Assembly: GCA_964465065.1 (NCBI GenBank)
Contig: CAYXHZ010000006.1
Span: 1,185-65,184, forward strand
Direction of reading: 5' to 3'
From: an uncultured Clostridia bacterium
Lineage (GTDB): Bacteria; Acidobacteriota; Aminicenantia; UBA2199
Length of the DNA: 64,000 bases
Shown here: positions 11,428 through 41,690 of the stretch, piece after piece
Layout: each line of letters opens with the position of its first letter
How positions within the stretch are numbered: the first letter of the stretch is position 1
The notes under the pieces: model-generated
Seen by the model: only the letters and a program-made list of their open reading frames with translations
Databases searched by the model: none
What the model was told of the DNA's origin: nothing
Translations under genes and position numbers: made by a program

Positions 11428-11626
11428 ATTGCCGCCGATCTGCGAACAGGGTCGTGATGGTGGCAAAGACCGCGGGTGGTGAAATCCCGTCTGAATGAAC
11501 CGGCAAAGAATGAGTAAAAGTACTCAAAGAGGCGTTCGTTTTCTTTGAATCCGCATGGGTATAACCACAAGGCAATAATTCAAAAAACACCGATAATAAA
11601 AGATATACAGTCTCTTCATGTTTGAA

Positions 11627-11666
11627 ATTACAATGTAAAACCCGTGACACTGTTCTGTATTGCAAT
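11627..11666. repeat. Imperfect inverted repeat (ATTaCAATgtAaAACC-N8-tGTTCTGTATTGCAAT), a degenerate copy of the perfect palindrome at 35461..35500
   Basis: The right arm tgttctgtattgcaat shares a 15-mer with the 35.48 kb element; the left arm matches its reverse complement at about 11 of 16 positions. It lies roughly 75 bp upstream of the 11744 start codon. Confidence 0.4.
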
Positions 11667-11743
11667 ATGACGCCGAAAAAAAAGGAGATTTGTTCTAGGC
11701 TGTGAAGGCGAGGGCGGATCAAAGCCTCAAACAGGAGAACAAA

Positions 11744-14371
11744 ATGAGTAAAAGAAATAGGATTGTCGGGATGCTGATTCTGATGCTCGGGCTGACAGGA
11801 ACCGTCCGGGCTGTTGAAAAAGCCCCAATCCGGGCCGAACGGCTCCAGGATCCAGTAACCGTCGATGGACGGCTCGAGGAGTCGTCCTGGCAGCGACAGG
11901 GTTACTGCGAGTTCTGGCAGCGGGAGCCGGACGAAGGCAAACCGGCCAGCGAAAGGAGCGAGGTGTGGCTGGCCTACGATGATGATGCCCTCTATGTGGC
12001 CGCCCGCTTGAGCGATTCTCAGCCCGAACTCGTGTCCGGGCTGCTGGGGCGGCGAGATACGGAATTAGACTGCGACTGGTTCACCGTCTATCTCGATCCC
12101 TATCTGGACAAACTCAGCGGCTTTGCCTTCGGCATCACTCCGGCGGGATCGGTCAGCGATCGCGCCTTGTATAACGATGTCGGATGGAACAGTCTATGGG
12201 ATGGCATCTGGAACGGCAAGGCCCAGCGGGACCGCCAGGGCTGGACGGTGGAGATGCGCATTCCCTTCAACCAGCTCCGCTTTTCCAAAAAGGATGGGGA
12301 ATATCGCTGGGGAGTTCATTTCCGGCGCATCGTCATGCGCAAGAATGAAGTGTCCGATTCGGCGCCCATACCCCGGACCGGCAATAACATGGTATCCCTG
12401 TTCAAGGAAATGGTGGGCATCGAAGGCATCGCCCCGCGACCGTTGATCATGGTCAGTCCCTACCTGGTGGGAAAAGGGGAATTCCTCGCCGGAGAGGTGG
12501 ATCAGGCGACGGGGAATCTGGGGCTGGACGCCAAGATCGGCCTTCGGAGCAACCTGACTCTCGACCTGTGTGTCAACCCCGATTTCGGCCAGGTGGAGGT
12601 GGATCCGGCCAGCATCAACCTCAGCGCCGCCGAGACCTACTATCAGGAAAGACGTCCCTTCTTCATAGAGGGTGCGGATCTGTTTACCAATTTCAGCTTC
12701 TGTGGTGGGAATCACCCCAGTGCTGGCTGGAACAACCCCCGATTCTTCTACAGCCGTCGCATCGGCCGACCACCGCAGGGTTCCGTTTCTCAGTCCGGTC
12801 AGATCGATATGCCGGAATGGGCGACGATTCTGAGCGCGGCCAAACTGACCGGCACCCTGGGGAACGGATGGAAGATCGGGGCCATCTACGGACTGACCGA
12901 GCGGGAGTTCGCCGCAGTCGATGATCTGGGCCAGGAGTTCGAGGTGGAGGTCGAGCCGCTGACCCATTACGCCGTACTGCGCACCCAGAAGGAATTCAAC
13001 CAGGGGCGGCAGGGTCTGGGCTTCCTGGGCACCCTGGTGGCCCGGGATTTTGCGGATGATTCCCTGCGAGGGGCTCTCAATTCCGATTCCTGGATGGTGG
13101 GGTTCGATGGCTGGGCGTTCTTCGGTCCGCAGAAGAATTGGGTTTTGAGTGGATGGTTCAGTTCCAGCCGGGTCAACGGTTCGGCCCAGCGCATCACCTC
13201 CTTGCAGCAAGAATTCCCCCATTACTACCAACGTCCCGACATGAGTCATGTGAACCTGGATACTGGTTTGACCCATTTGGATGGCTGGGTCGGCAGAATT
13301 GAAGTCAACAAGGAAAAAGGGAATTTAAGATTCAATGCGGGACTGGGTGCCGTGTCTCCGGGTTACGATATCCGGGACGGCGGGTATCATACGAGCGCGG
13401 ATGTCATCAACGGGCATGTGCTGGTCGGGTGGCAGGATTTTACTGTGGGGAAGGTGATACGCAAATGGAACATCGATCTGTGGCATCAGCGCAACTACAA
13501 TTTCGCCGGGGACAAGATCGGCGAACAGCGTGTCATTGTCGCGGCCAATGCCCAATTCCTGAACTACTGGTCCTGCAATTTTATGACCAGTTACAATCCC
13601 GGTCATTTTTCCCAGACCGCGACCCGAGGCGGACCGTTGATGAAGATACCATCCTATCAATGGTATAATTTTACCATCAGCAGCGACAGCCGCAAACGGC
13701 TGGTCGGCTCCCTGTCCGGTTATGTGAACCAGAGCAGCAACGGGTCATCGGAAAACACTTTCTCCCTGTCTCTCAGTCTGAAACCCAGCAGCCGGTTCAG
13801 TCTGTCCATCAGCCCGGCTTACAGCTCTATCAATGAACGGGCCCAATACGTGACCCAGGTCAATGATCCGACGATGACGGCCACCTACGGCAAGCGGTAC
13901 GTTTTCTCTGCTTTGGATTTGAAGGAACTCTCCTGTTCCATGCGCATCAACTGGATCTTCACGCCCCAGCTCAGTCTGCAGGGATATATCCAGCCTTTTC
14001 TTTCGGTGGGTCATTACCGGGATTTCGCCGAACTGGCTGAGCCGTCGAGCGATCGATTCAGGCCATTCGGACACGATGGCTCCACCATCGAAGCGGAAAA
14101 CGGGTCGTTTGGGGTCGATCCCGACGGCAGCGGGCCGGCCGCTCCTTTCCGGTTCAACAATCCCGATTTCAACCTCAAATCGCTGCGAGGCACTCTGGTC
14201 CTGCGCTGGGAGTACCTTCCGGGATCGAGCCTGTATTTCGTCTGGACGCAGAATCGGGCCGACTATGCCAACCCCGGCGATTTCCGTTTCGGCCGTGACC
14301 TGGGCGATCTGTTCTCCGCCCGGGGAGACAATGTCTTCATGGTAAAACTGACCCACGGTTTCAATCTGTAG
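11744..14371 (+). CDS. Large exported DUF5916 / CBM9-like (family-9 carbohydrate-binding-like) domain protein
   Basis: ATG at 11744 with an AGGAG SD 7 nt upstream. Signal peptide MSKRNRIVGMLILMLGLTGTVRA. The N-terminal region (..WLAYDDDALYVAARL..DWFTVYLDPY..) is typical of DUF5916/CBM9-like proteins, and the C-terminal 600 aa is beta-rich. Confidence 0.6.
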   Translation: MSKRNRIVGMLILMLGLTGTVRAVEKAPIRAERLQDPVTVDGRLEESSWQRQGYCEFWQREPDEGKPASERSEVWLAYDDDALYVAARLSDSQPELVSGLLGRRDTELDCDWFTVYLDPYLDKLSGFAFGITPAGSVSDRALYNDVGWNSLWDGIWNGKAQRDRQGWTVEMRIPFNQLRFSKKDGEYRWGVHFRRIVMRKNEVSDSAPIPRTGNNMVSLFKEMVGIEGIAPRPLIMVSPYLVGKGEFLAGEVDQATGNLGLDAKIGLRSNLTLDLCVNPDFGQVEVDPASINLSAAETYYQERRPFFIEGADLFTNFSFCGGNHPSAGWNNPRFFYSRRIGRPPQGSVSQSGQIDMPEWATILSAAKLTGTLGNGWKIGAIYGLTEREFAAVDDLGQEFEVEVEPLTHYAVLRTQKEFNQGRQGLGFLGTLVARDFADDSLRGALNSDSWMVGFDGWAFFGPQKNWVLSGWFSSSRVNGSAQRITSLQQEFPHYYQRPDMSHVNLDTGLTHLDGWVGRIEVNKEKGNLRFNAGLGAVSPGYDIRDGGYHTSADVINGHVLVGWQDFTVGKVIRKWNIDLWHQRNYNFAGDKIGEQRVIVAANAQFLNYWSCNFMTSYNPGHFSQTATRGGPLMKIPSYQWYNFTISSDSRKRLVGSLSGYVNQSSNGSSENTFSLSLSLKPSSRFSLSISPAYSSINERAQYVTQVNDPTMTATYGKRYVFSALDLKELSCSMRINWIFTPQLSLQGYIQPFLSVGHYRDFAELAEPSSDRFRPFGHDGSTIEAENGSFGVDPDGSGPAAPFRFNNPDFNLKSLRGTLVLRWEYLPGSSLYFVWTQNRADYANPGDFRFGRDLGDLFSARGDNVFMVKLTHGFNL

Positions 14372-14400: not shown

Positions 14401-14790
14401 ATGGCCGATTTCTTCAAACAGCTCAACGGTCAGGACGGGAGTTATTAGCGTCAGAGCCATGGCGGACGGGGCTATGTCTTTCAGGATCGCTACAAATCAT
14501 ACCTGATCCAGGATGAGGCCTACCTGATGCTCTGCCTGGCCTATGTGCTCAACAACCCGGTCAAGGCCGGAATATGCAAGGGATTCGAGAACTATCGCTG
14601 GTCCAGTGCCCAGTCCTACTTTTCAGATGAACCCCCAGAATGGCTGGACACGACGTTTATCGAAGAACTCTTCGGAGATGCCGATGCTTTGATGCGCTTC
14701 GTGGATGCGCAGGCCGAACTGGATCCGTTCGCCGATCTCAGCGTCAACAGCCTGGGGGTCATGTACCATCGGGCCCGCCGGAAAGGGTAA
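14401..14790 (+). pseudogene. 3' remnant of an IS200/IS605-family HUH (RayT / REP-associated tyrosine transposase-like) transposase, with an in-frame TAG
   Basis: Frame-1 translation: MADFFKQLNGQDGSY*RQSHGGRGYVFQDRYKSYLIQDEAYLMLCLAYVLNNPVKAGICKGFENYRWSS.... This matches the C-terminal third of Y1/RayT transposases (..WQ.RY....I.......YI..NPV.AGLV....YPWSS). The HUH-containing N-terminal half is absent because the DUF5916 stop abuts it at 14371. Confidence 0.65.
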
Positions 14791-27339: not shown

Positions 27340-27370
27340 GGCCCGCTCGCTGACTTCAGCCTCTCACAAA

Positions 27371-27403
27371 GGCGGCCAAGCTGTCCGCTTGGCCGCCTTT
27401 TTT
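27371..27403. terminator. Rho-independent terminator (GGCGGCCAAGC-tgtcc-GCTTGGCCGCC followed by TTTTTT), bidirectional between convergent genes
   Basis: Perfect 11-bp GC-rich stem, 5-nt loop and a T6 tract, all seen directly in sequence. Confidence 0.6.
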
Positions 27404-29218: not shown

Positions 29219-31261
29219 TCAGGAAAAGATCGACAAGGACTGCATGACGTTCTGGAGAAAGAACAGAAAATCGCGGCCCAGTTTCCAGGATGTCTTCTTG
29301 AGCGGCTCGACCCGCAGACTGTTGTTGAGCCGGTTCAAATCCAAGGGAATCCTGTTCTGCGGGTCCAGGCTGGCCCAGACGATTTTCTGCGGCCGGCGGT
29401 ACTTGAATTCCCCGCTGCGAGCCTGGCCGTCCCAGGTTTCCAGAACCTGAGTCCCGTCGTCGAAACAGACCAGCACATCGACCGGCAGACAGACGCCGCC
29501 CAGACGGTGCACAATGATCTCGGAATCAAAGAGCGCTTGCCCATCCTGATCGCCATCCGCTTTTTTCAGCAATTCCTTGCCGCCGCCGATCCCGACGAGC
29601 CCCCGGTCGGGCGTCAGCTCACGATTGTGAATAGCGGCCAGGCGGTAGTCGCAGACATCCGAACCGTACAGCACCTGATCGAAAAACCAGTTCATGTCCG
29701 GGCCGAAGCGTTGACCATGCCTGGCGGCCACCACCTCGTTGACCACGGCGATGAAGTCTCTGGCGCAGGGATGCCGGAATTTCCAGCGCTGATAGTAGGT
29801 CTTCATGATCTCGTCCATGGTCGCTGTGCCGATCAGCCCCTCCAATGTGCGCAGCCAGACGGCCGTCTTCTGGTAGGACAGCGGGCTGTAGCCACCGTGG
29901 GGGTAATGCCAGGAAAAGCGGAAATTCTCGGCGATACTGGGATTTTTCATAGCGACATAGCCCTGACGGACATTGTCGCCGTCCCCGATCCGGACGGTGC
30001 AGAAATCGACCAGCGAAGTCCTGGCGCCGTAGGCATGATCCATGATCCGGGCCTCGTAATAGGTGTTGAAGCCTTCGTCCAGCCAGGGTTCCTCGAACTC
30101 GTTGGAGGCCAGAATACCCATGAAGAATGCGTGACCGAACTCGTGCACCGAAACCATCTCGGTGAAGCGCAGACCGGGCGGCATGCCCCACAGGCAGCCG
30201 GCGGTGATCAGAGTGGTGTACTCCATGCCCGCCGAACCCAGACCGCGGAAAGGGGGATCGACAACGGTCAGGTGCGGGTAGGGGTATGCGCCCAGGTGTT
30301 CGCTGAAGTAGGCTAGGGCCGCCTTGACCGAATCGATGTGCCTGCCGGCCTGGCTGTAATGCTCCGGTTGCAGGTAAACCTGGATGTGGACATGCCGCCA
30401 CTGATCCTGAGCGATTCGGAAGCGGGGCGAGGCCGTCCAGGCGAAGTCGACGATGTCCTCGGCCCGGATCGCCACGGTCTTGGTGCCGTCGCCGTTGTCC
30501 TTCTCGGACTGGGTGATACCGCCGCTGCCGACAACGAATCGCCCGGGCAGCGTGATGCGCACATCGTAGACGCCGTGATTGGCGTAGAACTCGGAATCGG
30601 CGTGGAACTGATGGCAATTCCACTGCCCTTTTGCGGCATAGCGCTGTCCGGCCGGTTCGTAAACCCCGAGTTTGGGGAACCACTGACCGACCAGAAAATA
30701 ATCGTCGCTGTAGCCGGTTCGGGCGAAAATTTTCGGCAGTTTGCTGACGAATTCGATTTCGAGATCGATTTCCCCCTGCGGCAAGACCGGCTCGTCCAAG
30801 GTCACGGCCATGACCGTCTGATCATCGCTATTGCCGTCGTCAGGCTGAATGAAACGCATCCGGGCGGTCAGGTCCGATCCGTTGACCACCCGCAGGCGCT
30901 TGACATCGACAAAGCCCCAGTCCAGGGCCCGGTCCCCGTCCAGCCCGAAGCCGCGGTGCGAGCCCCGGGATTCCTTCATGAACGTGGAACGGGTGTTCTT
31001 GAAGGCGTTGAGGTAGAGGTGGAACTGCAGTTCGTCGACGGTGTCGTCCGACGGATTCTTCCAATGCAGGATCATACGGCCGTCTATCACCTTCTTATCG
31101 GTGTCCAGCCTCGCCTCCATATCGTAACGGGTCAGACGCTGACTCAGCGGCGACGGGAAGATATCCACCCCGGCGACGAGACGAAGCGTGAAAACCATGG
31201 TGAACGCCGCAAGCACACTAAACCGGACCGACAAGCCGGCCGCAGGATTATTTTTGCCCAT
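29219..31261 (-). CDS. M1-family zinc metallopeptidase (aminopeptidase-N-like), exported
   Basis: VHEFGHAFFMG (HExxH) followed by WLDEGFNTYYE (the third Zn ligand Glu). Start chosen at MGKNNPAAGLSVRFSVLAAF (ATG 31261); the track ORF starts with GTG at 31282. Confidence 0.8.
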   Translation of the reverse strand: MGKNNPAAGLSVRFSVLAAFTMVFTLRLVAGVDIFPSPLSQRLTRYDMEARLDTDKKVIDGRMILHWKNPSDDTVDELQFHLYLNAFKNTRSTFMKESRGSHRGFGLDGDRALDWGFVDVKRLRVVNGSDLTARMRFIQPDDGNSDDQTVMAVTLDEPVLPQGEIDLEIEFVSKLPKIFARTGYSDDYFLVGQWFPKLGVYEPAGQRYAAKGQWNCHQFHADSEFYANHGVYDVRITLPGRFVVGSGGITQSEKDNGDGTKTVAIRAEDIVDFAWTASPRFRIAQDQWRHVHIQVYLQPEHYSQAGRHIDSVKAALAYFSEHLGAYPYPHLTVVDPPFRGLGSAGMEYTTLITAGCLWGMPPGLRFTEMVSVHEFGHAFFMGILASNEFEEPWLDEGFNTYYEARIMDHAYGARTSLVDFCTVRIGDGDNVRQGYVAMKNPSIAENFRFSWHYPHGGYSPLSYQKTAVWLRTLEGLIGTATMDEIMKTYYQRWKFRHPCARDFIAVVNEVVAARHGQRFGPDMNWFFDQVLYGSDVCDYRLAAIHNRELTPDRGLVGIGGGKELLKKADGDQDGQALFDSEIIVHRLGGVCLPVDVLVCFDDGTQVLETWDGQARSGEFKYRRPQKIVWASLDPQNRIPLDLNRLNNSLRVEPLKKTSWKLGRDFLFFLQNVMQSLSIFS

Positions 31262-31376
31262 GACTGGAGTGTAAGAAGCCACTATGGAAAAGTCAATCCT
31301 CGCACCGGGCAGGCCTGGCGTGACATTGCCATATCACCTGGGTTATCATGGGGAATGAAATCCAGCGGAGGGGCGC

Positions 31377-32576
31377 ATGACCGGTTACGCAGAGCAGACG
31401 GAGCAAAGGCGGCAGCAAATCCTGCGTCTGGCCCTGCGGGTCATCGACGGCCCGGAACCGGCGGCGGCGGTCGCCCGCGAACGGGCGCTGATCGATACCG
31501 TCACCGTCTCCGATGTCATCACCCTCATCGACGCCCTGGTCCGCCAGGAACTGCCCATGGCCAAGCTCAAGACCGGTGTCAACAGGCTGATCAACCTGTT
31601 TTCCCGCAGTCTGAGCCGTCAGAGCGTCCCCTTTCCCGACACGCTGCCCCTGCTGAACACCCTGTGCGCCGACAACCGCCAGGCCGAGCAGTTGCTGTCC
31701 GCCCTGCGGCCGCTGGTCGGCGCATTGCAACGGCAGCCCCGCGACCCCGAATTGACCGCCGCCGCCCGCGAACTGCTGCTCAAGCTGCTGCGCTTCTGCA
31801 ACCACTACCTGATCAAGGAAAACGTGATCTTTCCCCGTCTGGAAGACAAATGGCCCGATTACCGTTGCCTGGCGGTGATGTGGTCCGTTCACGACGATAT
31901 CCGTTTCTGCCTGCGTGAGACCCTGGCCCAGCTTCTGCTCGAGGAACTGGACCTGGCGGCTTTCAACGCCCTGATCGGCCGCATCTTCTTCTCCGTTTCG
32001 GCCATCATCTTCCGGGAAGAAAAGCTGCTGCTCCCGCGCATGCTGACCACCCTGAGTCCGGCAGACTGGCAGGAGATGCTCGAACTCAGCGCCAAACTGG
32101 ACTGGCCGTTCGAGGCGCCGGTCTTCGTCCCGAAAAGAGCGCCGGAAAGCGACTACGTCCCGGACGGTCTCGTCAACCTGGGCAGCGGCCAGCTCAGCCC
32201 CAGGCAGCTGCTGCTGATGCTCAACAATCTGCCGCTGGACATCACCCTGGTCGACGCCAACGACCGCGTCCGCTACTTTTCGGAAGGCCGGGAACGCATC
32301 TTCCCCCGCAACCGGGCCATCATCGGCCGCCTGGTGCAGAACTGCCACCCGCCGGAAAGCGTGGCTGTGGTCGAGGAAATCATCCATGCCTTCCGCAGCG
32401 GCGAACGGGACAAGGCCGAATTCTGGATCGATCTGCCCCAGGGAAAAGTGCTGATCCAGTATTTCGCCCTGCGCGACAGCGGCGGCACCTACCGCGGCGT
32501 CCTCGAGACCAGCCAGAGAATCGATGCCATACGTGGATTGCAGGGTGAGCGGCGTCTGCTGGACTGGAACAAGTAG
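31377..32576 (+). CDS. DUF438 / hemerythrin-like / PAS-like domain sensor protein
   Basis: The C-terminal region NLPLDITLVDANDRVRYFSEG..RIFPRNRAIIGRLVQNCHPPESV resembles DUF438 (PAS-like). The N-terminal helical region has His/Glu residues consistent with a hemerythrin-like fold. Confidence 0.5.
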   Translation: MTGYAEQTEQRRQQILRLALRVIDGPEPAAAVARERALIDTVTVSDVITLIDALVRQELPMAKLKTGVNRLINLFSRSLSRQSVPFPDTLPLLNTLCADNRQAEQLLSALRPLVGALQRQPRDPELTAAARELLLKLLRFCNHYLIKENVIFPRLEDKWPDYRCLAVMWSVHDDIRFCLRETLAQLLLEELDLAAFNALIGRIFFSVSAIIFREEKLLLPRMLTTLSPADWQEMLELSAKLDWPFEAPVFVPKRAPESDYVPDGLVNLGSGQLSPRQLLLMLNNLPLDITLVDANDRVRYFSEGRERIFPRNRAIIGRLVQNCHPPESVAVVEEIIHAFRSGERDKAEFWIDLPQGKVLIQYFALRDSGGTYRGVLETSQRIDAIRGLQGERRLLDWNK

Positions 32577-32730
32577 CTGCAGGGCATAGTCCCATCAGAA
32601 ATTCACGGTAATTCAGCGGAATATCGGTTCTGATCAGAAGAAAAAGTGACAGAAAGACAAAAGCGTGTGATCAAAGCGAAAGCAAATGGAATGTTACAGT
32701 GCTATGATTTCAACGGGTCAAGGAGGCAAG

Positions 32731-34455
32731 ATGACGCGAACTTTGAAAATCATTCTCATCGTTCTGATCTGTCTGTTTTCACTGGCCAGCCTGACGGCGG
32801 CGCTGCACGACCAGTCCGGGTTCTACACGATTCCGCAGGTCAGCTACTCCTTGCATGACGGCACGGCACTGAGCCGGCTGTGCTTCACCGCTTCGGGGGC
32901 CCGTCTCTTCTACTGTTTCATCAAAGCCGACAAGGACCCGGAAAACAAGCCATTGTTCCTCTTCTTCAACGGCGGCCCCGGCAGCGCCACCAGCGCCGGC
33001 CTGCTCGGCTTCTACACCAGCCGCAAGACCTTCGACAACCGCATCAGAGGCGGTGGCGACCGCTACATCGACAACCCCTGCAGTTGGACAAAACTCGGCA
33101 ACCTCCTGTATATCGACGCCCGCTGCGCCGGCTTCTCCTACGGACTGTTGCCGGACGGCACCGGCCGCAATCTGGCCGGACTGTCCGGCGAGTTTCTGGG
33201 CCACAACTTCAACAGTTACATCGACGCTGCCGACTACATCCGCGTACTGCTGGCCTTTCTGGCAGATCACGCCGAGTTGCGGGACAATCCGGTCGTCATC
33301 GTCGGCGAGAGCTACGGCGGCGTGCGGGCCACCCTGATGCTGAACATGCTGCTCCATTACCCGGAGTACGGCAACAGCCTGGATATATACCAGGATGAGA
33401 GTCTGGTCGAAACGATCCAGGCGCATTACGATGCGGTTTTCCCCGAGTACAACGGCCAGGAGGTGCCGGCGCAGGTCATCGCCCGCCAGTTCGGCCACCA
33501 GGTTTTGATCCAGCCGGCCATCGACGCCTACCGTGATTATTTTGACGGCCCCATGCTCGAGCAACCCGGTTCGCTCGTCTACCGGATCGCCGCCGAGACC
33601 GGAACCGTATTCACCCCCTGCACCGGCAGCGATTGCGATGCCATGAGCAACATCTACGACTTCATCGAAAATGTCGCCAAGCGGGACATTTACGGCTGTC
33701 ACAAGCCGGCCGGATGGACGGACAGTTTCTTCGCTCACGCCGGCAGCCTGCTCCTCGACAGCGGGCAGTTCCAGGCCATCACAGGCACAGACCCCGCTCT
33801 GATCCCGCAGATCCGGCCCGATGCCCGTTCTCAGGCCTATAAATTCGCCTACTACCCGCCCGACAGCGCCCTGAGCCTGCTGCCCCGGCACCGCTGGATC
33901 CTGCCGCTGCTGTCAAGCGACCAGAAAGCCCGACTGCGCCGCCTTTTCACGGCGCCGGCCAACCCGCCGCAGACCGACGGCTACCACATCCCCACCCTGT
34001 TCGGTTCCCTGCTGGCCTTCGACGCCTATTTCAGCAGTTCGACCCACGACGGTTTCATCGCCTACTACTACCTCAACCCGACCTATTGCCGCGACTACGC
34101 ATCCTACTCCTACCACCCGCTGACCGGCCAGAAGTTTTTGCAGAACCTGCTCGATGTCCGCACCTTCATCACCAACGCCAAGTACGATCTGGTCGTGTAC
34201 ACCAACGCCCTGCCGCCGGCTCTGGGCATGCACGACAACCTGGTCGCCTCGTCCGTTCACCAGACCCAGCTGCCCCAGGGCAGCCAGCGGCCCGGACAGA
34301 TCGTCATCCAGTACCAGAACGGCGTATTGAATCAGAGCGGCAGTCCGGTTCGCACCATCCGTTTCCCCTATTACGCCCACAGCTCGCACCCCGTTTCGCT
34401 GACCGAACCGCAGGAATTTTTCAGCGATGTCAGCGCCTGGCTGAAAGAGGAATGA
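32731..34455 (+). CDS. S10-family serine carboxypeptidase-like protein, exported
   Basis: Start at MTRTLKIILIVL with AGGAGG 5 nt upstream. S10 motifs FFNGGPGSATS and VVIVGESYGGVRA (GESYGG, nucleophile Ser). Candidate His region ..AHSSHPVS.. near the C-terminus. Confidence 0.65.
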   Translation: MTRTLKIILIVLICLFSLASLTAALHDQSGFYTIPQVSYSLHDGTALSRLCFTASGARLFYCFIKADKDPENKPLFLFFNGGPGSATSAGLLGFYTSRKTFDNRIRGGGDRYIDNPCSWTKLGNLLYIDARCAGFSYGLLPDGTGRNLAGLSGEFLGHNFNSYIDAADYIRVLLAFLADHAELRDNPVVIVGESYGGVRATLMLNMLLHYPEYGNSLDIYQDESLVETIQAHYDAVFPEYNGQEVPAQVIARQFGHQVLIQPAIDAYRDYFDGPMLEQPGSLVYRIAAETGTVFTPCTGSDCDAMSNIYDFIENVAKRDIYGCHKPAGWTDSFFAHAGSLLLDSGQFQAITGTDPALIPQIRPDARSQAYKFAYYPPDSALSLLPRHRWILPLLSSDQKARLRRLFTAPANPPQTDGYHIPTLFGSLLAFDAYFSSSTHDGFIAYYYLNPTYCRDYASYSYHPLTGQKFLQNLLDVRTFITNAKYDLVVYTNALPPALGMHDNLVASSVHQTQLPQGSQRPGQIVIQYQNGVLNQSGSPVRTIRFPYYAHSSHPVSLTEPQEFFSDVSAWLKEE

Positions 34456-34456
34456 A

Positions 34457-35407
34457 ATGCAACGCGCACACCCATCCCTGTTGGTCCTGTTCTGCCTGCT
34501 GACGACCGTATCGGCGGCGGAAAAAGGCAACTCGAACGAATTCGGGCGCTGGCAACTGGAGATATCCGGCGGTCCGCAACTTTTTTTTGCCAACGACGTC
34601 AACCTGTTCACCCAGGCCGAAAACCGCTACCTCGATCTCTATTTCCGAGACAACCCCTATTGCTCCGTTCTCAACGATCCGGGTCTGAGCAATTTCCGTT
34701 ACGCCCTCAACGGCCGGATCCGCCTCCGTTATCAGCTGAACAGGCGCTTCCGGCTCTGCGGCGGTCTGCATTACCTGTACGGAAACAACAGCAATTCCGC
34801 CCGTTTCAGTTTCCAGCGCGACAACGGCTGGCGCACCCTGACCGATTCGCTGGATTACCAGGCCCTGGATACCCGGCTGGACCTCGTCTTCCCCCACCTG
34901 GGCCTCGCCTACCAGCTGCCGGTCGGCACCAGAACGGACCTGGAACTGGGCCTGTCGGCCGGCTTGGTCTGGGCCACTCTACGTCTGGAACGGCACATCG
35001 TCGACAGCATCCAGGCCCGGGAACTGGATCCGGTCAACGAGTACATCATCTATCAGGGCGAACGTTCGCTGAGCATGAAGGGCAGGGGCAGCGGTTTCGG
35101 AATCAACGCCGAATTGAAACTGAACCGGCGCGTCAACCGGCACCTGGGCGTCTTCCTGGAAACCGGGTACAGCTTCTACCATCTGCCCAGGCTACGCGGT
35201 CCCAGCAGCGAATTGGCCGGAGGCCGGACCCGCAGCTGGGATGGGGAATGGTTCCTGATCGGCGAACGGGTCGAAAAGAGCTGGGGTTCCGGCGAATTCT
35301 ACTACCCCAGCAACGATCCCAGTCTGACACAACGTCGCGGCGGCGATTTTTTCATCAACCTGCACGGCTTCATCAGCCTGCAATTCGGTATACTGATCAG
35401 CTTGTAA
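34457..35407 (+). CDS. Exported protein, probably an outer-membrane beta-barrel; immediately follows the S10 peptidase gene
   Basis: Signal peptide MQRAHPSLLVLFCLLTTVSA, alternating amphipathic beta-strand pattern, and C-terminal ..LQFGILISL. Only a 1-nt gap to the S10 gene. Confidence 0.45.
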   Translation: MQRAHPSLLVLFCLLTTVSAAEKGNSNEFGRWQLEISGGPQLFFANDVNLFTQAENRYLDLYFRDNPYCSVLNDPGLSNFRYALNGRIRLRYQLNRRFRLCGGLHYLYGNNSNSARFSFQRDNGWRTLTDSLDYQALDTRLDLVFPHLGLAYQLPVGTRTDLELGLSAGLVWATLRLERHIVDSIQARELDPVNEYIIYQGERSLSMKGRGSGFGINAELKLNRRVNRHLGVFLETGYSFYHLPRLRGPSSELAGGRTRSWDGEWFLIGERVEKSWGSGEFYYPSNDPSLTQRRGGDFFINLHGFISLQFGILISL

Positions 35408-35460
35408 TTCACTGTTTCGGCTCGCGGCGAAAATGGTCATGTCCCGCTCGGCCGTTCGAA

Positions 35461-35500
35461 ATTGCAATACAGAACCTTTCCGGGGTTCTGTATTGACAAT
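35461..35500. repeat. Near-perfect palindrome ATTGCAATACAGAACC-tttccgg-GGTTCTGTATTG(a)CAAT, with 12-bp perfect arms extendable to 16
   Basis: Seen directly in sequence, 54 bp downstream of the OMP gene stop and 64 bp upstream of the DUF4097 gene. The 15-mer GTTCTGTATTGCAAT recurs at 11651-11666. Confidence 0.45.
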
Positions 35501-35563
35501 CCGGAATTCCCCGCACCTGAGGCCGACGTATGTAGAGGCATGAAATCAACTGTGAGGTGAAAC

Positions 35564-36520
35564 ATGAACAAACAAGGCAAATGGATTTTGATGAGCGTCG
35601 CGCTGCTGAGCCTGGGGCTGACCCTGTACTCGGCAGAGATGCAAAGCGAGAACCGCGCCTTCAGCGGGAAAAAGAGCGTTCGGTTGGAACTGGTCAGCGG
35701 CGATTGCCGGATCAAAACCGTCGGCGGCGACCGGATCGAGGTGAAGCTCAGCTTCAGTTACGACCGAAAATCGTTCACCCCGAAATTCGAGGAACAGGGG
35801 GAAATCCTGGTTCTCGGTGAGGATTTCGACGGCAACAGTTGCCAGGGCGAATCGATCTGGGAAATTTCCCTGCCGGCCAGTACGGGCATCGAGTTCCGCT
35901 CGGCCTCTGGCAATTTAGTGATCAGCGGCGTTCAAAACGGTATCGAGGCCCACTCGGCCTCCGGCAACATCGAGCTCCGGGAAATCGGCGGCCCGGTGTC
36001 GCTGCACACCGCCAGCGGAAACATCAGCTTGAAAGACATCGGCGGCGACATCAACGCCCGCTCGGCCAGCGGCGACATCGACATCGAGCAGGTCAACGCC
36101 AAGCTCGTCTGCTGCAAGACGGCCAGCGGAAACATCGGCCTGAACAAGGTCAAGGCCGGACTGAAAATCGCCGGCGCAAGCGGCAACATCAGCGCCCAGG
36201 CTGTCAGCCCGGAGTCCGAGAGCAGTTTCAAAACCGCATCAGGCAATGTCGCGGTGCAGCTGGCCTCCGCCCTGAAGGCCGACATCACGCTGGCCTCGGC
36301 TTCCGGGGACGCCTGCCTGGATTTCAACGGTCAGCCCATGGATGGCAGCTTCGAGTTGACCGCCCGCAAGGGCCGCCCCATCCTGTCCCCGTTCAAATTC
36401 GACCGGGAAGAGGAATTCGAGCAAAACGACCAGACCTACGTCAAAAAGACAAAGGTTCAAAAGTCGGCCAGCCCCAAAATCACGGTGAAAACCGCTTCCG
36501 GAAAGGCCGAAGTCAAATAG
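35564..36520 (+). CDS. DUF4097 (LiaF C-terminal-like, beta-helical 'putative adhesin') exported protein
   Basis: Signal peptide MNKQGKWILMSVALLSLGLTLYSA, then about 10 tandem roughly 20-aa repeats (S/T)ASGN(I/V)... typical of DUF4097. Confidence 0.65.
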   Translation: MNKQGKWILMSVALLSLGLTLYSAEMQSENRAFSGKKSVRLELVSGDCRIKTVGGDRIEVKLSFSYDRKSFTPKFEEQGEILVLGEDFDGNSCQGESIWEISLPASTGIEFRSASGNLVISGVQNGIEAHSASGNIELREIGGPVSLHTASGNISLKDIGGDINARSASGDIDIEQVNAKLVCCKTASGNIGLNKVKAGLKIAGASGNISAQAVSPESESSFKTASGNVAVQLASALKADITLASASGDACLDFNGQPMDGSFELTARKGRPILSPFKFDREEEFEQNDQTYVKKTKVQKSASPKITVKTASGKAEVK

Positions 36521-36528
36521 TCATCGCA

Positions 36529-36550
36529 GGGGCTTGATCCATCAAGCCCC
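36529..36550 (+). terminator. Hairpin GGGGCTTGAT-cc-ATCAAGCCCC just after the DUF4097 stop
   Basis: Perfect 10-bp stem; the downstream sequence is only weakly T-rich. Confidence 0.35.
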
Positions 36551-36582
36551 GCTCCTTCCTGAATCTCATTCGACCCAAAGCT

Positions 36583-36610
36583 GAAACAAAAGCAGTCGCC
36601 GATTCGTACC
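36583..36610 (+). promoter_or_regulatory. ECF (sigmaW-like) promoter candidate cTGAAAC-N17-CGTACC upstream of the M13 peptidase gene
   Basis: ctGAAACaaaagcagtcgccgattCGTACCaattttt, about 40 nt upstream of the ATG at 36649. Same pattern as the degP and ECF-sigma upstream regions. Confidence 0.35.
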
Positions 36611-36648
36611 AATTTTTTGAGCTTGAGATCTACAGCTAGGAGACATAT

Positions 36649-38706
36649 ATGAAAATTTCCGTACAAAAGTTCCGCACTGTTCTGTTTTGGCTCGTCTTCA
36701 CACTGGTTTCGACCGACTCGGCATTCCTGGTCGCCGACGACACGAAGACACCGGCTCTGGACAAGAACAACATGGATGTATCCGTCAGACCCGGCGATGA
36801 TTTCTACCGCTACGCCAACGGTCTGTGGATCAAGAGATTCAATCTGCCCGACGACCGCAGTTCCTACGATGCCTTCGATCAGGTACGCGAGCAGAACCGC
36901 GACCGTCTGCATGCCCTGTGCCAGGAACTGGCCGCCACGCCCGGCCGGTTTCAAACGGGCAGCCCGGCGCAGAAGATCGGCGATTTCTACGCTACGGCCA
37001 TGGACACGGAAACCATCGAAAAACTGGGCTATGAGCCGTTGCAGGAAGAGCTGAAGCGCATCGCCGCCTTGAGCGATGTTAAAAGCCTGCTCGCCTTGCT
37101 GGCAGAATTTCACCGCAACGGCCTGGGCGCTCTCTTCGGTGGCGGAGTCATGGCCGATCTGGCCAATTCCAAGGCTACCGCCTATTACCTGGCCCAGACC
37201 GGACTCGGACTCTCCGACCGGGATTATTACACCCGGGACGATGCCGACGCCCAGCGCATCCGCCGCGAGTACCTGATCCACATCGCCAAGATGATGCAGC
37301 TCATCGGCGACAGTTCGCAACAGGCCGAGCAGGCGGCCAAGACGGTCATGGCCATCGAAACCCGCCTTGCCAAAGCTTCCAAAACCCGGGTCGAGATGCG
37401 CGATATCCCCGGCCTGTACAACAAGATGAGTATTACCCAGCTCCAGTCCCACTGTCCCCAGGTGGACTGGACCGCCTATTTCCAGGCCATCGCCGGCCGG
37501 GAAATCCCCGAAGTCGTCGTCATGTCCCCCAAGTTCTACAAGGAGATGGGTCTGATGCTGCAGGAAGTCCCGATCGCCGACTGGCGCTGCTACCTGCGCT
37601 GGCACCTGACCACCTTCTGCGCAGATTATTTGAGTTCGGACTTCGTCAACGAGGATTTCCGCTTCTTCGACCAGATCATGGAAGGCACCAAGGAGATCCA
37701 GGAACGCTGGAAACGCATGACCAACCTGACCAGCGACTGTCTGGACGAGATCATGGGTCAGATGTACGTGGAAAAATACTTCCCGCCTGCAGCCAAACAG
37801 CGCATGGCCCAGATGGCCGCCAATATCAAGCAGGCCCTGGAAGCCCGCCTGAAATCGGTCAGCTGGATGGGTGAAGAAACCAAAAAAGAGGCCCTGGCCA
37901 AGCTGGCGGCCATGAAGGTCGAGGTCGGTTACCCCGACAAGTGGCAGGATTACAGCAAGCTGGAGGTCAAGCGCGACGGATTTCTGGCCAACATCAGACG
38001 CTACGGCCGCTTCAACTTCGAAAAAAACATGCAGGAATACGGCAAGCCGGCCGACCACAGCAAGTGGGACATGCCGCCGCAGGTCGTCAACGCCGCCTAC
38101 AACCCGATCTTCAACCGCATGGTCTTCCCGGCGGGCATCCTGCAGGCCCCCTTCTTCTTCATGGACGCCGACGACGCCATGAACTACGGCGCCATCGGCA
38201 TGGCCATCGGCCACGAGATGAGCCACGGTTTCGACGACCAGGGCCGAAATTTCGACAGGGAAGGCAATCTGCGCGACTGGTGGACTCAGCAGGACGCAGC
38301 CGAGTTCAAGAAAAAGACCCAGGTGCTCGTCGACCAGTACAGCGCCTTCACCGCCGTGGGCGATGTCAAGGTCAACGGTGAACTCGCCCTGGGCGAAAGC
38401 ATCGCCGATTTCGCCGGTCTGACCATCGCCTATGATGCCTACCGCCTGTCTCTGGCCGGCAAAGAACCGGAACCCATCGACGGTCTCAGCGGCGGACAGC
38501 GCTTCTTTCTGGCCTTCGCCCAACTGTGGCGCGGCAAGATCCGCGACGAGGCGCTCAAGCGCATGGTCAGCGAGGACGTCCACCCCTGGGGCGAGTTCCG
38601 GGTCAATGGAGCCCCGTTCAACGTGCCCGCCTTTTACGAACTCTTCCAAATCAAAGAAGGGGACAAACTGTACCGCAAACCCGAGCAACGCGCCGTGATC
38701 TGGTAA
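36649..38706 (+). CDS. M13-family zinc metalloendopeptidase (neprilysin/PepO-like), exported
   Basis: IGHEMSHGFDDQG (HExxH) and GESIADFAGL (the ENIAD-type motif). Signal/TM N-terminus. 685 aa. Confidence 0.85.
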   Translation: MKISVQKFRTVLFWLVFTLVSTDSAFLVADDTKTPALDKNNMDVSVRPGDDFYRYANGLWIKRFNLPDDRSSYDAFDQVREQNRDRLHALCQELAATPGRFQTGSPAQKIGDFYATAMDTETIEKLGYEPLQEELKRIAALSDVKSLLALLAEFHRNGLGALFGGGVMADLANSKATAYYLAQTGLGLSDRDYYTRDDADAQRIRREYLIHIAKMMQLIGDSSQQAEQAAKTVMAIETRLAKASKTRVEMRDIPGLYNKMSITQLQSHCPQVDWTAYFQAIAGREIPEVVVMSPKFYKEMGLMLQEVPIADWRCYLRWHLTTFCADYLSSDFVNEDFRFFDQIMEGTKEIQERWKRMTNLTSDCLDEIMGQMYVEKYFPPAAKQRMAQMAANIKQALEARLKSVSWMGEETKKEALAKLAAMKVEVGYPDKWQDYSKLEVKRDGFLANIRRYGRFNFEKNMQEYGKPADHSKWDMPPQVVNAAYNPIFNRMVFPAGILQAPFFFMDADDAMNYGAIGMAIGHEMSHGFDDQGRNFDREGNLRDWWTQQDAAEFKKKTQVLVDQYSAFTAVGDVKVNGELALGESIADFAGLTIAYDAYRLSLAGKEPEPIDGLSGGQRFFLAFAQLWRGKIRDEALKRMVSEDVHPWGEFRVNGAPFNVPAFYELFQIKEGDKLYRKPEQRAVIW

Positions 38707-38732
38707 TACGGTCGTTCTTGCAAACCGCATCC

Positions 38733-38766
38733 GCGCCAGGGGTTTGATTCTGCAAACCCCTGGCGC
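38733..38766 (+). terminator. Rho-independent-like terminator GCGCCAGGGGTTTG-attctg-CAAACCCCTGGCGC followed by a U-rich tail
   Basis: Perfect 14-bp stem and 6-nt loop, seen 27 bp after the M13 peptidase stop. Confidence 0.5.
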
Positions 38767-38849
38767 ATTATCTGTTCAGTCCTCTTGCCAAAAGCACCCC
38801 AACAAAGGTATAACAAGCTCATACCAATCAAACTCGAATTGGAGATTTC

Positions 38850-41690
38850 ATGCAGTCACGCTTCTGGCTGAAACCGTTGCTTATCGCCCAAATGCTGTTT
38901 TCCATCACCCTATCGGCCCAAATCCGCCTAGCTCTGCTTCCGGTCGACACTCCGACCGCTCTGCCGGCGGTCAACTCCGACATACTGATCCTGCGGGAAC
39001 TGAGTTGGCAGACGGCCATCGGCTCCGATCCCAGCCCCATCTCCGCCGGATCGCAACCGCTTCTGCTGCGTCTCCGCTTTCCCGACGAGGGCGTGACCAT
39101 CGGTGACAGCGAACTCGATCGGCTGGAGATCTTCCTACAGCAAAACCCGGCCATCGACGCCATCATTCTCGATCTGGGCACCTTTAAACCGGCCAGCGAC
39201 CAGATGAATTACCTGCTCAAGCGGATTTCCAGCCTGATCAAAGGGGTCAAGACGGATTTTAAAATCGGCCTGGAGGCCGATGACCTGGATTCGCTGCTGG
39301 AAGCGATCGTCACCCAGAAACTGAGTTCCTACCTCGATGCCCTGGTCGTGTCATCGGCCGACAACGCCCTGCAGGAAAAGATCATGACCCGCCTGCCCGA
39401 GCTCAAGCTCTGGGAGCGCCTGAGCCCCAATCCGGGCACAGATACGGAAACCGCCCGGCTGATCACGCGTCTGCTCAACCGGCCGCTGTTCATGACCAAC
39501 ACCACTTCCCTCTACCTGTGCGAAAGTCCGGCCAGCGCCGAATGCCTGCATACCCTGGACCGACTGATGCCCTACCTGAGCATGGGACTCATCGACCACA
39601 TGGAAGTCGTCAACCTGCAGGAAGAAAAGGGCAGCGTCCGACCGTTGCCGCTCTACTACAAGCACGACGGCGTGTCGCCGGTGATCATGGCCGTCATCGA
39701 CCAGGCCGGGAAAAAATCGATCCAGCTGACCCCCGGAGTCTACGAAAACGCCCTGGTCACCGACCTGCAGACCGGAGCGCAGAACCGCGAGAAGATCGGC
39801 CGGCACAGCCGCAGCTTCAGGATCCAGCTGAATCCCTCCATATATGTCATCGAATTGAGCCCCCGCGATGAGCTCAAACGCCAGGTCATCGAGGTCGGCG
39901 TCAATTCCGAACGCCAGTTGAGCGCCGAGGAAATCGTCGCCAAGGCCCGTGCCTGGATGACCATGCAGAGCCGTCGGCTGCACTGCTTCATTGCCGATAT
40001 GAGCGTCAACTACAGCCTCACCGTCGGCAACCTCAACGAAACCTTCGATCTGCTCATCCGCGGACCGTACTTCAGCTCCCGCGGCGAACCGGCCGATTGG
40101 GTGCAACAGGATTTTTTTCTCAACCGTATCAAATGGAAATCGAAGAAAATACCCAAAATTCCGCTGCTGCAACCCGAGAAGGTCAGCGTCGTCCCCCTGG
40201 AAATCGAACTCAGCGAACTCTACCAGTACCAGCGCAGCCATGACGAAACCCTTGCCGGGACAGCGGTCTACGTCATCCATTTCAAACCCGGACCGGGCCT
40301 GAAGGATCAAAGCGCCTACGAAGGCCGCCTGTGGATCAGCAAAAAGGACGGCGCCATCCTGCAGAAGGAACTGAACCAGCTCAACCTCAAAGGCGAAGTG
40401 CTCTCCAACGTCGAGACGCAAACCATCAGTCCCATGGGCAGCGACGGAGAAATCTGCCTGCCGACAAGGCTGGTGGGCCACCAGATTTTCAACATCGCCG
40501 GTACGCTCACCCACATCGAGAAACTGATCGAATACGACAATATCCGCATCAATCCCGTGGATTTCACCGCCCAGCGCCAGGCGGCCCGCGATTCGGACGC
40601 CCGCATGGTACGGGACACCGACCGAGGCCTGCGTTACCTGGTCAAGGACAGCCAGAGCGGCGAACGCACCGTGGAATGGCAGCAGAGCAAAACGCAGACC
40701 GCCGCCATTTTCGGGAGCTTTTACGACAGTTCCTACGAATTTCCGGTGCCGCTGGCCGGCATCAATTACCTCAATTTCGACCTCGGTGGCCGTGGCAAGG
40801 GCCGCCAGACCAACATTTTTTTCGCCGGAGCCATGCTGCTGGCCAACTACACCGATCCGTCGCTGTTCGGCAGCGGTATCAGTTTCAACGCCAACCTCAA
40901 CGGCATCGCCTTCGCATCGCGGAACAAAATCTACCGCAACCTGGACCTGAGCCCCGGCGAGACCATCAAGGACCAGTCCTTCAAGAGTTTCATCAGTTTC
41001 GGCTTTTCACTGACCCGCAACGTCAAGCTGACCGCCGTCCTTGGCGCGGATTATTACATGTACAGCCGCCACAAGGAAGACACCAACCCGGAGTTCATCC
41101 TGCCCCGCGACAATCTGACCGGCAGCATCCGTCTCAAGCTGGACGCCAGTTTCAAGGGTTTCACCCTGTCCTGCTGGGCCGATTACGGCCGGCGCAGCGA
41201 TTGGGGTTTCTGGGGTCTGCCCGAAAACGACGATTACCTGGCCAGCCAGAAAGGCTTTTACCGCTTTCGGGTCATCGCCGCCAAGGACTTCCACCTGTCC
41301 CTGTTCCGCAAGATCCAGACCAAGTTCACCTGGCTGGACAGCTACCGCGTGGACCGCTTCAGCGCCTACAAGTTCGGCTTTTTCAGCGAGCTGCGCGTCA
41401 GCGGCTTCAACTCCGGAACCATTCGCGCCGAACGGGCGCTGATGTTCAATCTGGCATACAGCTATCAATTGAGCCAGCATTTCGGGCTGGAATTCAAGTA
41501 CGATTCCGTTCTGGCCAGCAACAGCAGCGAAGAGATGAGCCGGCAATATTTTTCAGGCATAGCCGCCGCCGCCAGTACCGCCCTGCCCTTCTGGGACAAC
41601 ATGCTGGTCAAGTTAGAAGCCGGACTGCCGGTGGTCAGCCACGGCGTCAAAGGCTTTGTTCTCTACCTGATGCTGCTCAAGATGTTCTGA
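38850..41690 (+). CDS. Large (946 aa) exported protein, function unknown; predicted beta-rich C-terminal (possible OM barrel) region
   Basis: Signal peptide MQSRFWLKPLLIAQMLFSITLSA. No catalytic motif recognised. The C-terminal 350 aa has an alternating aromatic/beta pattern and ends ..VLYLMLLKMF. Confidence 0.5.
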   Translation: MQSRFWLKPLLIAQMLFSITLSAQIRLALLPVDTPTALPAVNSDILILRELSWQTAIGSDPSPISAGSQPLLLRLRFPDEGVTIGDSELDRLEIFLQQNPAIDAIILDLGTFKPASDQMNYLLKRISSLIKGVKTDFKIGLEADDLDSLLEAIVTQKLSSYLDALVVSSADNALQEKIMTRLPELKLWERLSPNPGTDTETARLITRLLNRPLFMTNTTSLYLCESPASAECLHTLDRLMPYLSMGLIDHMEVVNLQEEKGSVRPLPLYYKHDGVSPVIMAVIDQAGKKSIQLTPGVYENALVTDLQTGAQNREKIGRHSRSFRIQLNPSIYVIELSPRDELKRQVIEVGVNSERQLSAEEIVAKARAWMTMQSRRLHCFIADMSVNYSLTVGNLNETFDLLIRGPYFSSRGEPADWVQQDFFLNRIKWKSKKIPKIPLLQPEKVSVVPLEIELSELYQYQRSHDETLAGTAVYVIHFKPGPGLKDQSAYEGRLWISKKDGAILQKELNQLNLKGEVLSNVETQTISPMGSDGEICLPTRLVGHQIFNIAGTLTHIEKLIEYDNIRINPVDFTAQRQAARDSDARMVRDTDRGLRYLVKDSQSGERTVEWQQSKTQTAAIFGSFYDSSYEFPVPLAGINYLNFDLGGRGKGRQTNIFFAGAMLLANYTDPSLFGSGISFNANLNGIAFASRNKIYRNLDLSPGETIKDQSFKSFISFGFSLTRNVKLTAVLGADYYMYSRHKEDTNPEFILPRDNLTGSIRLKLDASFKGFTLSCWADYGRRSDWGFWGLPENDDYLASQKGFYRFRVIAAKDFHLSLFRKIQTKFTWLDSYRVDRFSAYKFGFFSELRVSGFNSGTIRAERALMFNLAYSYQLSQHFGLEFKYDSVLASNSSEEMSRQYFSGIAAAASTALPFWDNMLVKLEAGLPVVSHGVKGFVLYLMLLKMF

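Follow-up and report, generated by a model that had tools for sequence, protein, structure and literature searches.

A 53-bp double palindrome upstream of exported-protein genes in an uncultured Aminicenantes-related bacterium is probably a transcription-factor site

A 53-bp double palindrome occurs twice in the 64,000-nucleotide stretch of DNA analysed here (the window). We argue that it is probably a transcription-factor site located upstream of a promoter, and that it most likely activates the exported-protein gene behind it. On this reading the element is an ordinary gene switch, previously undescribed, and not a mobile repeat. In the mechanism we propose, a dimeric or multimeric transcription factor would bind both units of the element. 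The promoter downstream would have a recognisable -10 (TATnnT) and a poor -35. The bound factor would most likely activate the next gene (DUF4097 behind site 1, DUF5916 behind site 2). Our leading candidate for this factor is a membrane-anchored one-component regulator with a periplasmic Reg_prop beta-propeller, a Y_Y_Y domain, a TM segment and a cytoplasmic AraC-type domain. The literature was searched for ATTGCAAT operators and for DUF4097 regulation with no match, and a link between the motif and exported toastrack/DUF5916 proteins or a membrane-bound AraC-type sensor was not found there.

Structure of the element

The original prediction started from a perfect inverted repeat with 12-bp arms around the loop tttccgg, and the repeat is real. 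CAATACAGAACC (35465-35476), the loop TTTCCGG and GGTTCTGTATTG (35484-35495) form a perfect 12-nt inverted repeat. The chance expectation for such a palindrome is none, and it was matched in 0 of 100 dinucleotide-preserving shuffles. The arms were also said to be extendable to 16, and they are, but only with a 1-nt bulge because the right arm, ATTGACAAT, carries an extra A. A second occurrence of the 15-mer GTTCTGTATTGCAAT is indeed present at 11652-11666. Copy 2 has, as was claimed, a degenerate left arm, which differs at 4 of 15 positions. At site 1 the 15-mer corresponds to the left arm read on the minus strand (35461-35475) and not to the right arm. A search for the 15-mer with up to 3 mismatches gives 3 matches against 0.24 expected; a 16-mer search needed 3 mismatches because an A is inserted after ATTG in unit 2 of site 1.

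Judged from an alignment of 15 distinct site sequences, which defines the 22-bp unit, this palindrome is the inner part of a 53-bp element. The element is made of two 22-bp imperfect palindromes with the consensus GTTCGAAATTG|CAATTTCGAAC (Table 1). The first-noted palindrome joins the right half of unit 1 to the left half of unit 2 across the spacer. On the same alignment the striking hairpin is a geometric by-product of two adjacent palindromic sites, putatively for a protein. The original prediction offered as one of its readings the operator of a dimeric regulator for exported proteins. Its anatomy has to be redrawn, as the putative binding unit is a 22-bp palindrome on ATTG|CAAT that is present twice, and the hairpin merely bridges the two units. 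A first PWM built on the 12-nt arms worked but masked the real unit, and it was replaced by a 22-bp unit model.

Unit 1 of site 1 is symmetric about ATTG|CAAT by an inverted-repeat search and aligns with unit 1 of 14 related sites. The core ATTGCAAT is nearly invariant across the aligned sites, and so are GTnC and GAAC, with the starts of GTnC and CAAT 11 bp apart in each half-unit. The spacer has no conserved columns. It is 9 nt long in 12 of the 15 aligned sites and 10 nt long in 3. Three helical turns (31-32 bp) separate the centres of the units, and this would place both units on the same face of the DNA. The element is polar, and unit 1 is the better palindrome of the two. The promoter-side (gene-proximal) flank of unit 2 is G/C-rich (TCCGGAC, CCGGAAT, CCCCCGC and similar).

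Table 1. Features of the two sites and of the genes they may regulate (window coordinates)
Feature	Position	Strand	Sequence and remarks
Site 1, whole	35454-35507	+	Unit 1, spacer, unit 2
Site 1 unit 1, promoter-distal	35454-35475	+	GTTCGAAATTGCAATACAGAAC; 33.6 bits, best in window, scores on both strands
Site 1 spacer	35476-35484	+	CTTTCCGGG; 9 nt, length kept across sites, sequence not
Site 1 unit 2, promoter-proximal	35485-35507	+	GTTCTGTATTGACAATCCGGAAT; 1-bp insertion, aligns with related unit 2 GTTCTnnATTGCAATnCCGGAC
First-noted palindrome	35465-35495	+	54-nt region folds as RNA at -23.5 kcal/mol, z = -4.9
-10-like hexamer, site 1	35529-35534	+	TATGTA; 21 nt past unit 2, putative promoter element
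Shine-Dalgarno and start codon	35554-35566	+	GAGGTGAAACATG; nearly identical in L012, L013, L016, L017
DUF4097 (toastrack) gene, putatively regulated	35564-36520	+	318 aa, exported, PF13349 E=3.3e-20, hydrophobic N-terminus
Site 2, whole	11620-11673	+	Unit 1, spacer, unit 2
Site 2 unit 1	11620-11641	+	GTTTGAAATTACAATGTAAAAC; 26.4 bits, scores on both strands
Site 2 unit 2	11652-11673	+	GTTCTGTATTGCAATATGACGC; after 10-nt spacer, 22.0 bits, holds the 15-mer common with site 1
-10-like hexamer, site 2	11696-11701	+	TAGGCT; 22 nt past unit 2, putative promoter element
DUF5916 gene, putatively regulated	11744-14371	+	875 aa, exported, Pfam PF19313 E=5.4e-64

Conservation and copy number

The original prediction hinged on whether the palindrome is conserved upstream of orthologous genes, and the element is found before the DUF4097 genes of relatives. 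Loci were fetched by their DUF4097 orthologues at 41-56% identity (L012, L013, L016, L017, L019 and L021). All of these have two ATTGCAAT-like boxes upstream that are 31 bp apart, with GTnC and GAAC on their flanks. Metagenomes were also scanned with a DNA pattern built from the fetched loci, and 16 contigs matched. Seven of the 16 carry the element in fuller form (L026, L028, L030, L031, L033, L034 and L035, with L026/L031 listed as one entry among the independent finds). The genes beside these sites were identified afterwards. They are DUF4097 genes, and at L028 the gene has a CBM9/DUF5916-like N-terminus. Five further matches (L023, L025, L029, L032 and L037) were judged to be chance. In the remaining four (L024, L027, L036 and L038) the pattern hit an unrelated repeat, about 31 nt long and arrayed in tandem (ATTGCAATATTGAACGGCTTAGCTGTGCAGT...), on contigs of about 41% G+C.

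The two-unit element is present with the same polarity in 13 distinct related metagenomic loci, always upstream of DUF4097 or, at L028, of the DUF5916-like N-terminus. The downstream proteins in these loci are only 27-56% identical. The non-coding surroundings diverge across the 15 distinct sites: the spacer and flanks are unconserved and the units are kept.

Copies are few. When the unit model was run over the window and about 13 kb of DNA that flanks it in the same organism (L039 and L042), the two tandem sites were all it found. The units in the window score 22-34 bits against at most 14.9 bits in shuffled windows. Both sites are upstream of exported-protein genes and on the coding strand. 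The pattern CAATNNANAACCN{5,12}GTTCTGTATTG was run against 185,579 species genomes, a set that does not include the source genome, and gave 8 single matches in unrelated taxa. By our own estimate this is the number expected by chance.

The support across species is weaker for site 2 than for site 1. The closest three homologues of the DUF5916 gene (L045-L047, 61-64% identity) have no site upstream. Conservation of site 2 therefore rests on two parallels, a weak site before a DUF5916 paralogue of 36% identity in L016 and the good site at L028. At L045 (4252-9166) and L046 (12666-15161) the double palindrome is missing, and the homologues adjoin two-component systems of the LytTR type (His_kinase PF06580 plus Response_reg/LytTR). 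Control of the DUF5916 genes may differ in those lineages.

Promoter context and regulated genes

A TA(T)nnT hexamer is located 21-23 nt past unit 2 in 14 of 16 sites. Its forms include TATCAT, TATCTT, TATTAT, TATGAT, TATGTA and TAGGCT. No other conservation is seen between unit 2 and the hexamer, and all sites have a poor -35 where one would be expected (e.g. cGACAA, AATTCC). A scan for consensus promoters did not find a canonical -35/-10 pair at site 1. We infer that the conserved hexamer is a -10 of the sigma-70 type. If it is, unit 2 ends about 21 nt ahead of it at about -34, and would span about -55 to -34 with its centre at about -44.5. Unit 1 would span about -86 to -65 with its centre at about -75.5 (roughly -76). 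Transcription would start near 35541 and 11708.

Other promoter readings were considered and rejected. TTGACA (35493-35498) or the TTGCAA of box 2 might be read as a -35, but no orthologue has a -10-like hexamer at 16-18 nt from either, and the promoter scan found none. The aligned sites were also inspected for a sigma-54 promoter (GG-N10-GC) and an ECF-sigma promoter (GAAC-N16-17-CGT), and the spacing fits neither. A LexA-like site (CTGT-N8-ACAG) fails, by inspection, on spacing or orientation.

As first claimed, start codons lie on the + strand downstream of both copies, at 64-69 nt (ATG 35564) and 78 nt (ATG 11744), and the gene behind site 1 does encode DUF4097. The genes upstream of site 1 had been called an S10-peptidase/OMP operon. 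The S10 peptidase stands and the OMP label is less secure, as the second protein (316 aa) has no significant family. The homologues of the 875-aa DUF5916 protein carry the name 'carbohydrate binding family 9 domain-containing protein'. The best named relatives are Candidatus Aminicenantes/Acidobacteriota MAGs, with 50-54% identity for DUF5916 and 71-73% for the FtsH of the window. Weak matches of DUF4097 had first hinted, by their names, at the FCB group, a placement that FtsH and DUF5916 overruled. Short metagenomic assemblies (L001-L003) are identical to the window, and the organism occurs in samples such as SRR10083296, ERR14964774 and ERR14173542.

Some features of the surroundings can be recorded here. 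In relatives, a small stem-loop (GCC...GGC) separates the -10-like box from the Shine-Dalgarno in the DUF4097 leader (L012 9940-9975, L013 9945-9975, L016 775-800, L017 505-525); the leader in the window is shorter and lacks it. Secreted peptidases are abundant around these genes in the window (29219-41690), L012 and L016, with M1, S10 and M13 in the window and M16 in L016. A conserved exported protein of 946-947 aa without a family match is encoded at 38850-41690, and synteny with the relatives is partial.

The operator reading of the original prediction was right in kind. The distance and polarity are conserved, and the element is upstream of orthologous exported-protein genes. As a classical operator it fares less well, since a location upstream of the -10-like box suggests an activator site. 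The same double palindrome might still be the operator of a repressor. The factor would then occlude the -35 or loop the DNA, and an inducer would derepress the exported-protein genes. Tandem operators with dyad symmetry on one helical face are typical of repressors, and unit 2 reaches the expected position of the -35. Against this, the conserved -10-like hexamer and the expected start point lie outside the site, and the -35 region is poor in all sites, as it is at activator-dependent promoters. The candidate regulator encoded beside the site in seven related loci is AraC-type, and members of the AraC/XylS family are mostly activators. We consider a repressor unlikely, and an activator is the sign of regulation we favour.

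RNA hairpin

The strong RNA hairpin without a U-tract that was first described exists at site 1, but it is not strong in copy 2 or in most orthologous sites. Folding the 54-nt element as RNA gives -23.5 kcal/mol at site 1, -25.1 at L013, -17 at L012 and -10 at L021. The values drop to -7 at L016 and L017 and to -2.6 at site 2, where the fold is worse than all 200 shuffles (z = +1.8). In the alignment 79% of the stem cells are paired; shuffling the columns yields 76%. At three positions in the stem, 7-9 of the 15 sites are unpaired. Since pairing is about what column shuffles give, the symmetry comes from conserved columns and not from selection for pairing. An Rfam search of 35000-36000 had no match at E<=1.

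A hairpin could end the transcript of the upstream operon of S10 peptidase and 316-aa protein, either as a terminator or as a stabiliser of the 3' end. Site 1 begins 47 nt past the stop codon at 35407, its fold is strong (Table 1), and the same operon is upstream in L012. However, the stem at site 1 is A/T-rich and is followed by ACAATCCGGAATTCC with no U-tract, and a terminator scan made no call there. The stem is broken in L012, and the site in L013 comes after a divergent malic-enzyme gene. Covariation is weak and there is no Rfam family. Site 2 does not fold, and the intergenic region around it separates divergent genes, so there is no transcript for it to terminate and it cannot be a terminator. 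This function is quite improbable, and if it exists it is possibly a secondary role confined to site 1.

Two perfect 14-nt inverted repeats elsewhere in the window do look like terminator hairpins. The one at 27368-27400 (AAAGGCGGCCAAGC/GCTTGGCCGCCTTT) is between convergent genes, and the one at 38733-38766 (GCGCCAGGGGTTTG/CAAACCCCTGGCGC) is just past the stop codon of the M13 peptidase.

Mobile elements

A genome with REP elements carries tens to hundreds of them, for the most part outside genes and at gene 3' ends; in RayT systems, inverted REP copies flank an intact RayT gene. In the second reading of the original prediction, the palindrome is REP-like and a RayT tyrosine transposase would have mobilised it. 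This reading can claim an imperfect intergenic palindrome with at least 2 copies and an 87-aa ORF (14527-14790) with a weak match to REP_Tyr_transpos, confined to the C-terminal 24 positions of the profile (E=0.0023), but it is very improbable: there are 2 copies in about 77 kb of source DNA, both promoter-upstream, in one orientation and at a fixed distance to gene starts; orthologous promoters in distant relatives (37-56% protein identity) carry the element; and copy 2 is unable to form the hairpin that a Y1 transposase would need. The claimed RayT remnant is less secure too, as the match covers only the last 24 positions at 17.8 bits, far under the NCBIfam family cut-off of 80, and no intact, flanked RayT was found; no copy flanks the fragment, the nearest being 2.8 kb off and across a gene. 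The N-terminus of the 87-aa ORF (YVLNNPVKAG...WSS) resembles the C-terminal end of REP-associated tyrosine transposases, and the ORF is probably a decayed gene fragment.

A candidate AraC-type regulator

If the double palindrome is an activator site, its related loci offer a candidate for the factor. A gene for an AraC-type regulator is directly upstream of the site and on the same strand in seven of them (L019, L021, L026, L030, L031, L033 and L035), where it ends 20-70 bp ahead of unit 1. The regulators have a Reg_prop beta-propeller, Y_Y_Y, a predicted TM segment and HTH_AraC. A Pfam search of the L021-type protein (917 aa) found no histidine-kinase or receiver domain. Across lineages the C-terminal DNA-binding domains share 47-58% identity, whereas longer tblastn alignments give about 35-39%. 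The region of the second recognition helix, GFYSKSVFNTAFKKFTG, is nearly invariant. This conservation fits a shared DNA target. HTH_AraC is absent from all 49 ORFs of the window, and no AraC-type gene was found, beside the site or elsewhere, in the locus DNA of the closest relatives (L012, L013, L016 and L017).

AraC-family domains usually read asymmetric sites of 17-20 bp, not 22-bp palindromes. The marbox, for instance, is GCAC-N7-YAAA. The 11-bp spacing between the starts of GTnC and CAAT is suggestive of the geometry of the two helix-turn-helix motifs in one AraC-type domain. Palindromes of 22 bp are atypical for the family, so the fit can be no more than suggestive.

A bolder proposal is an undescribed regulon of uncultured bacteria, both Aminicenantes-like and related ones. 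Here a kinase-free, membrane-spanning AraC regulator would take a periplasmic cue through its beta-propeller/Y_Y_Y region. It would bind the 53-bp double palindrome as overlapping and opposed GTnC-N7-CAAT boxes, two per 22-bp unit, and switch on secreted proteins of the envelope, namely toastrack (DUF4097) and CBM9/DUF5916. We put this forward tentatively, as a possibility with the odds somewhat against it.

Comparison with known systems

The closest parallel is with AraC/XylS activator sites, such as AraC I1-I2 at araBAD and those of RhaS, MelR and XylS. Activator sites in this family abut the -35 hexamer. Like these, our element would have two adjacent sites at roughly -35 to -85 if the hexamer is the -10, and both combine a good -10 (putative in our case) with a weak -35. 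An AraC-family gene is also the neighbour in seven related loci. The AraC/XylS half-sites are asymmetric, whereas each of our units is a 22-bp palindrome. The candidate regulator also differs in being membrane-anchored with a periplasmic propeller sensor, and the window has no regulator gene adjacent to the site.

The hybrid two-component systems of Bacteroides have a Reg_prop/Y_Y_Y periplasmic sensor fused to an AraC output. Reg_prop repeats, Y_Y_Y and a C-terminal HTH_AraC are common to these and our candidate. Unlike them, the 917-aa protein of the L021 type has no Pfam kinase or receiver domain, so it would be a one-component transmembrane regulator. The putative targets here are toastrack and DUF5916 exported proteins, whereas the hybrid systems are tied to polysaccharide utilisation loci.

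Tandem class I/class II activator sites of the CRP type have centres near -41.5, -61.5 and so on. They resemble the element in their 22-bp dyad units, which lie on one face of the helix ahead of a weak -35. Our element has an uninterrupted ATTGCAAT core and not 5-N6-5, its centres would be at -44.5/-75.5, and no Crp/Fnr gene is associated. The likeness to REP/RayT is a short imperfect palindrome between genes and a weak RayT-like fragment in the window. The element differs from it in low copy number, fixed promoter polarity, orthologous conservation, one copy that cannot form a hairpin and the lack of a flanked RayT.

The DUF4097 toastrack domain of the putatively regulated protein recalls the Lia/Psp envelope-stress systems. 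The toastrack has been argued to be intracellular there, and an association with AraC was not reported (PMC11237479). In contrast to those systems (PMC11237479), the protein here has a signal-like segment at its N-terminus, and the associated regulator is AraC-type and not LiaRS.

The same genome has a second, different toastrack context. An operon running from 60-1793 of the window (- strand) into L039 (4863-7804) encodes an ECF sigma, a zf-HC2 anti-sigma, two LiaI/LiaF-TM proteins and a 422-aa DUF4097 protein, and it has no double-palindrome site. At 1905-4220 of the window (- strand), one ORF of 771 aa matches LptF_LptG twice and appears to encode a lipopolysaccharide export permease in which LptF and LptG are fused.

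Conclusions

The kind of element described here is wholly familiar, and no principle of gene regulation is overturned by it. Its value is a concrete cis-element and a candidate regulator for DUF4097 and DUF5916, two large uncharacterised families of exported proteins. The host lineages are uncultured and related to Aminicenantes/Acidobacteriota, where transcriptional control is almost unstudied. If the regulon proposed above is true, the toastrack proteins would gain an extracytoplasmic role, and AraC-type domains would have a new mode of DNA recognition.
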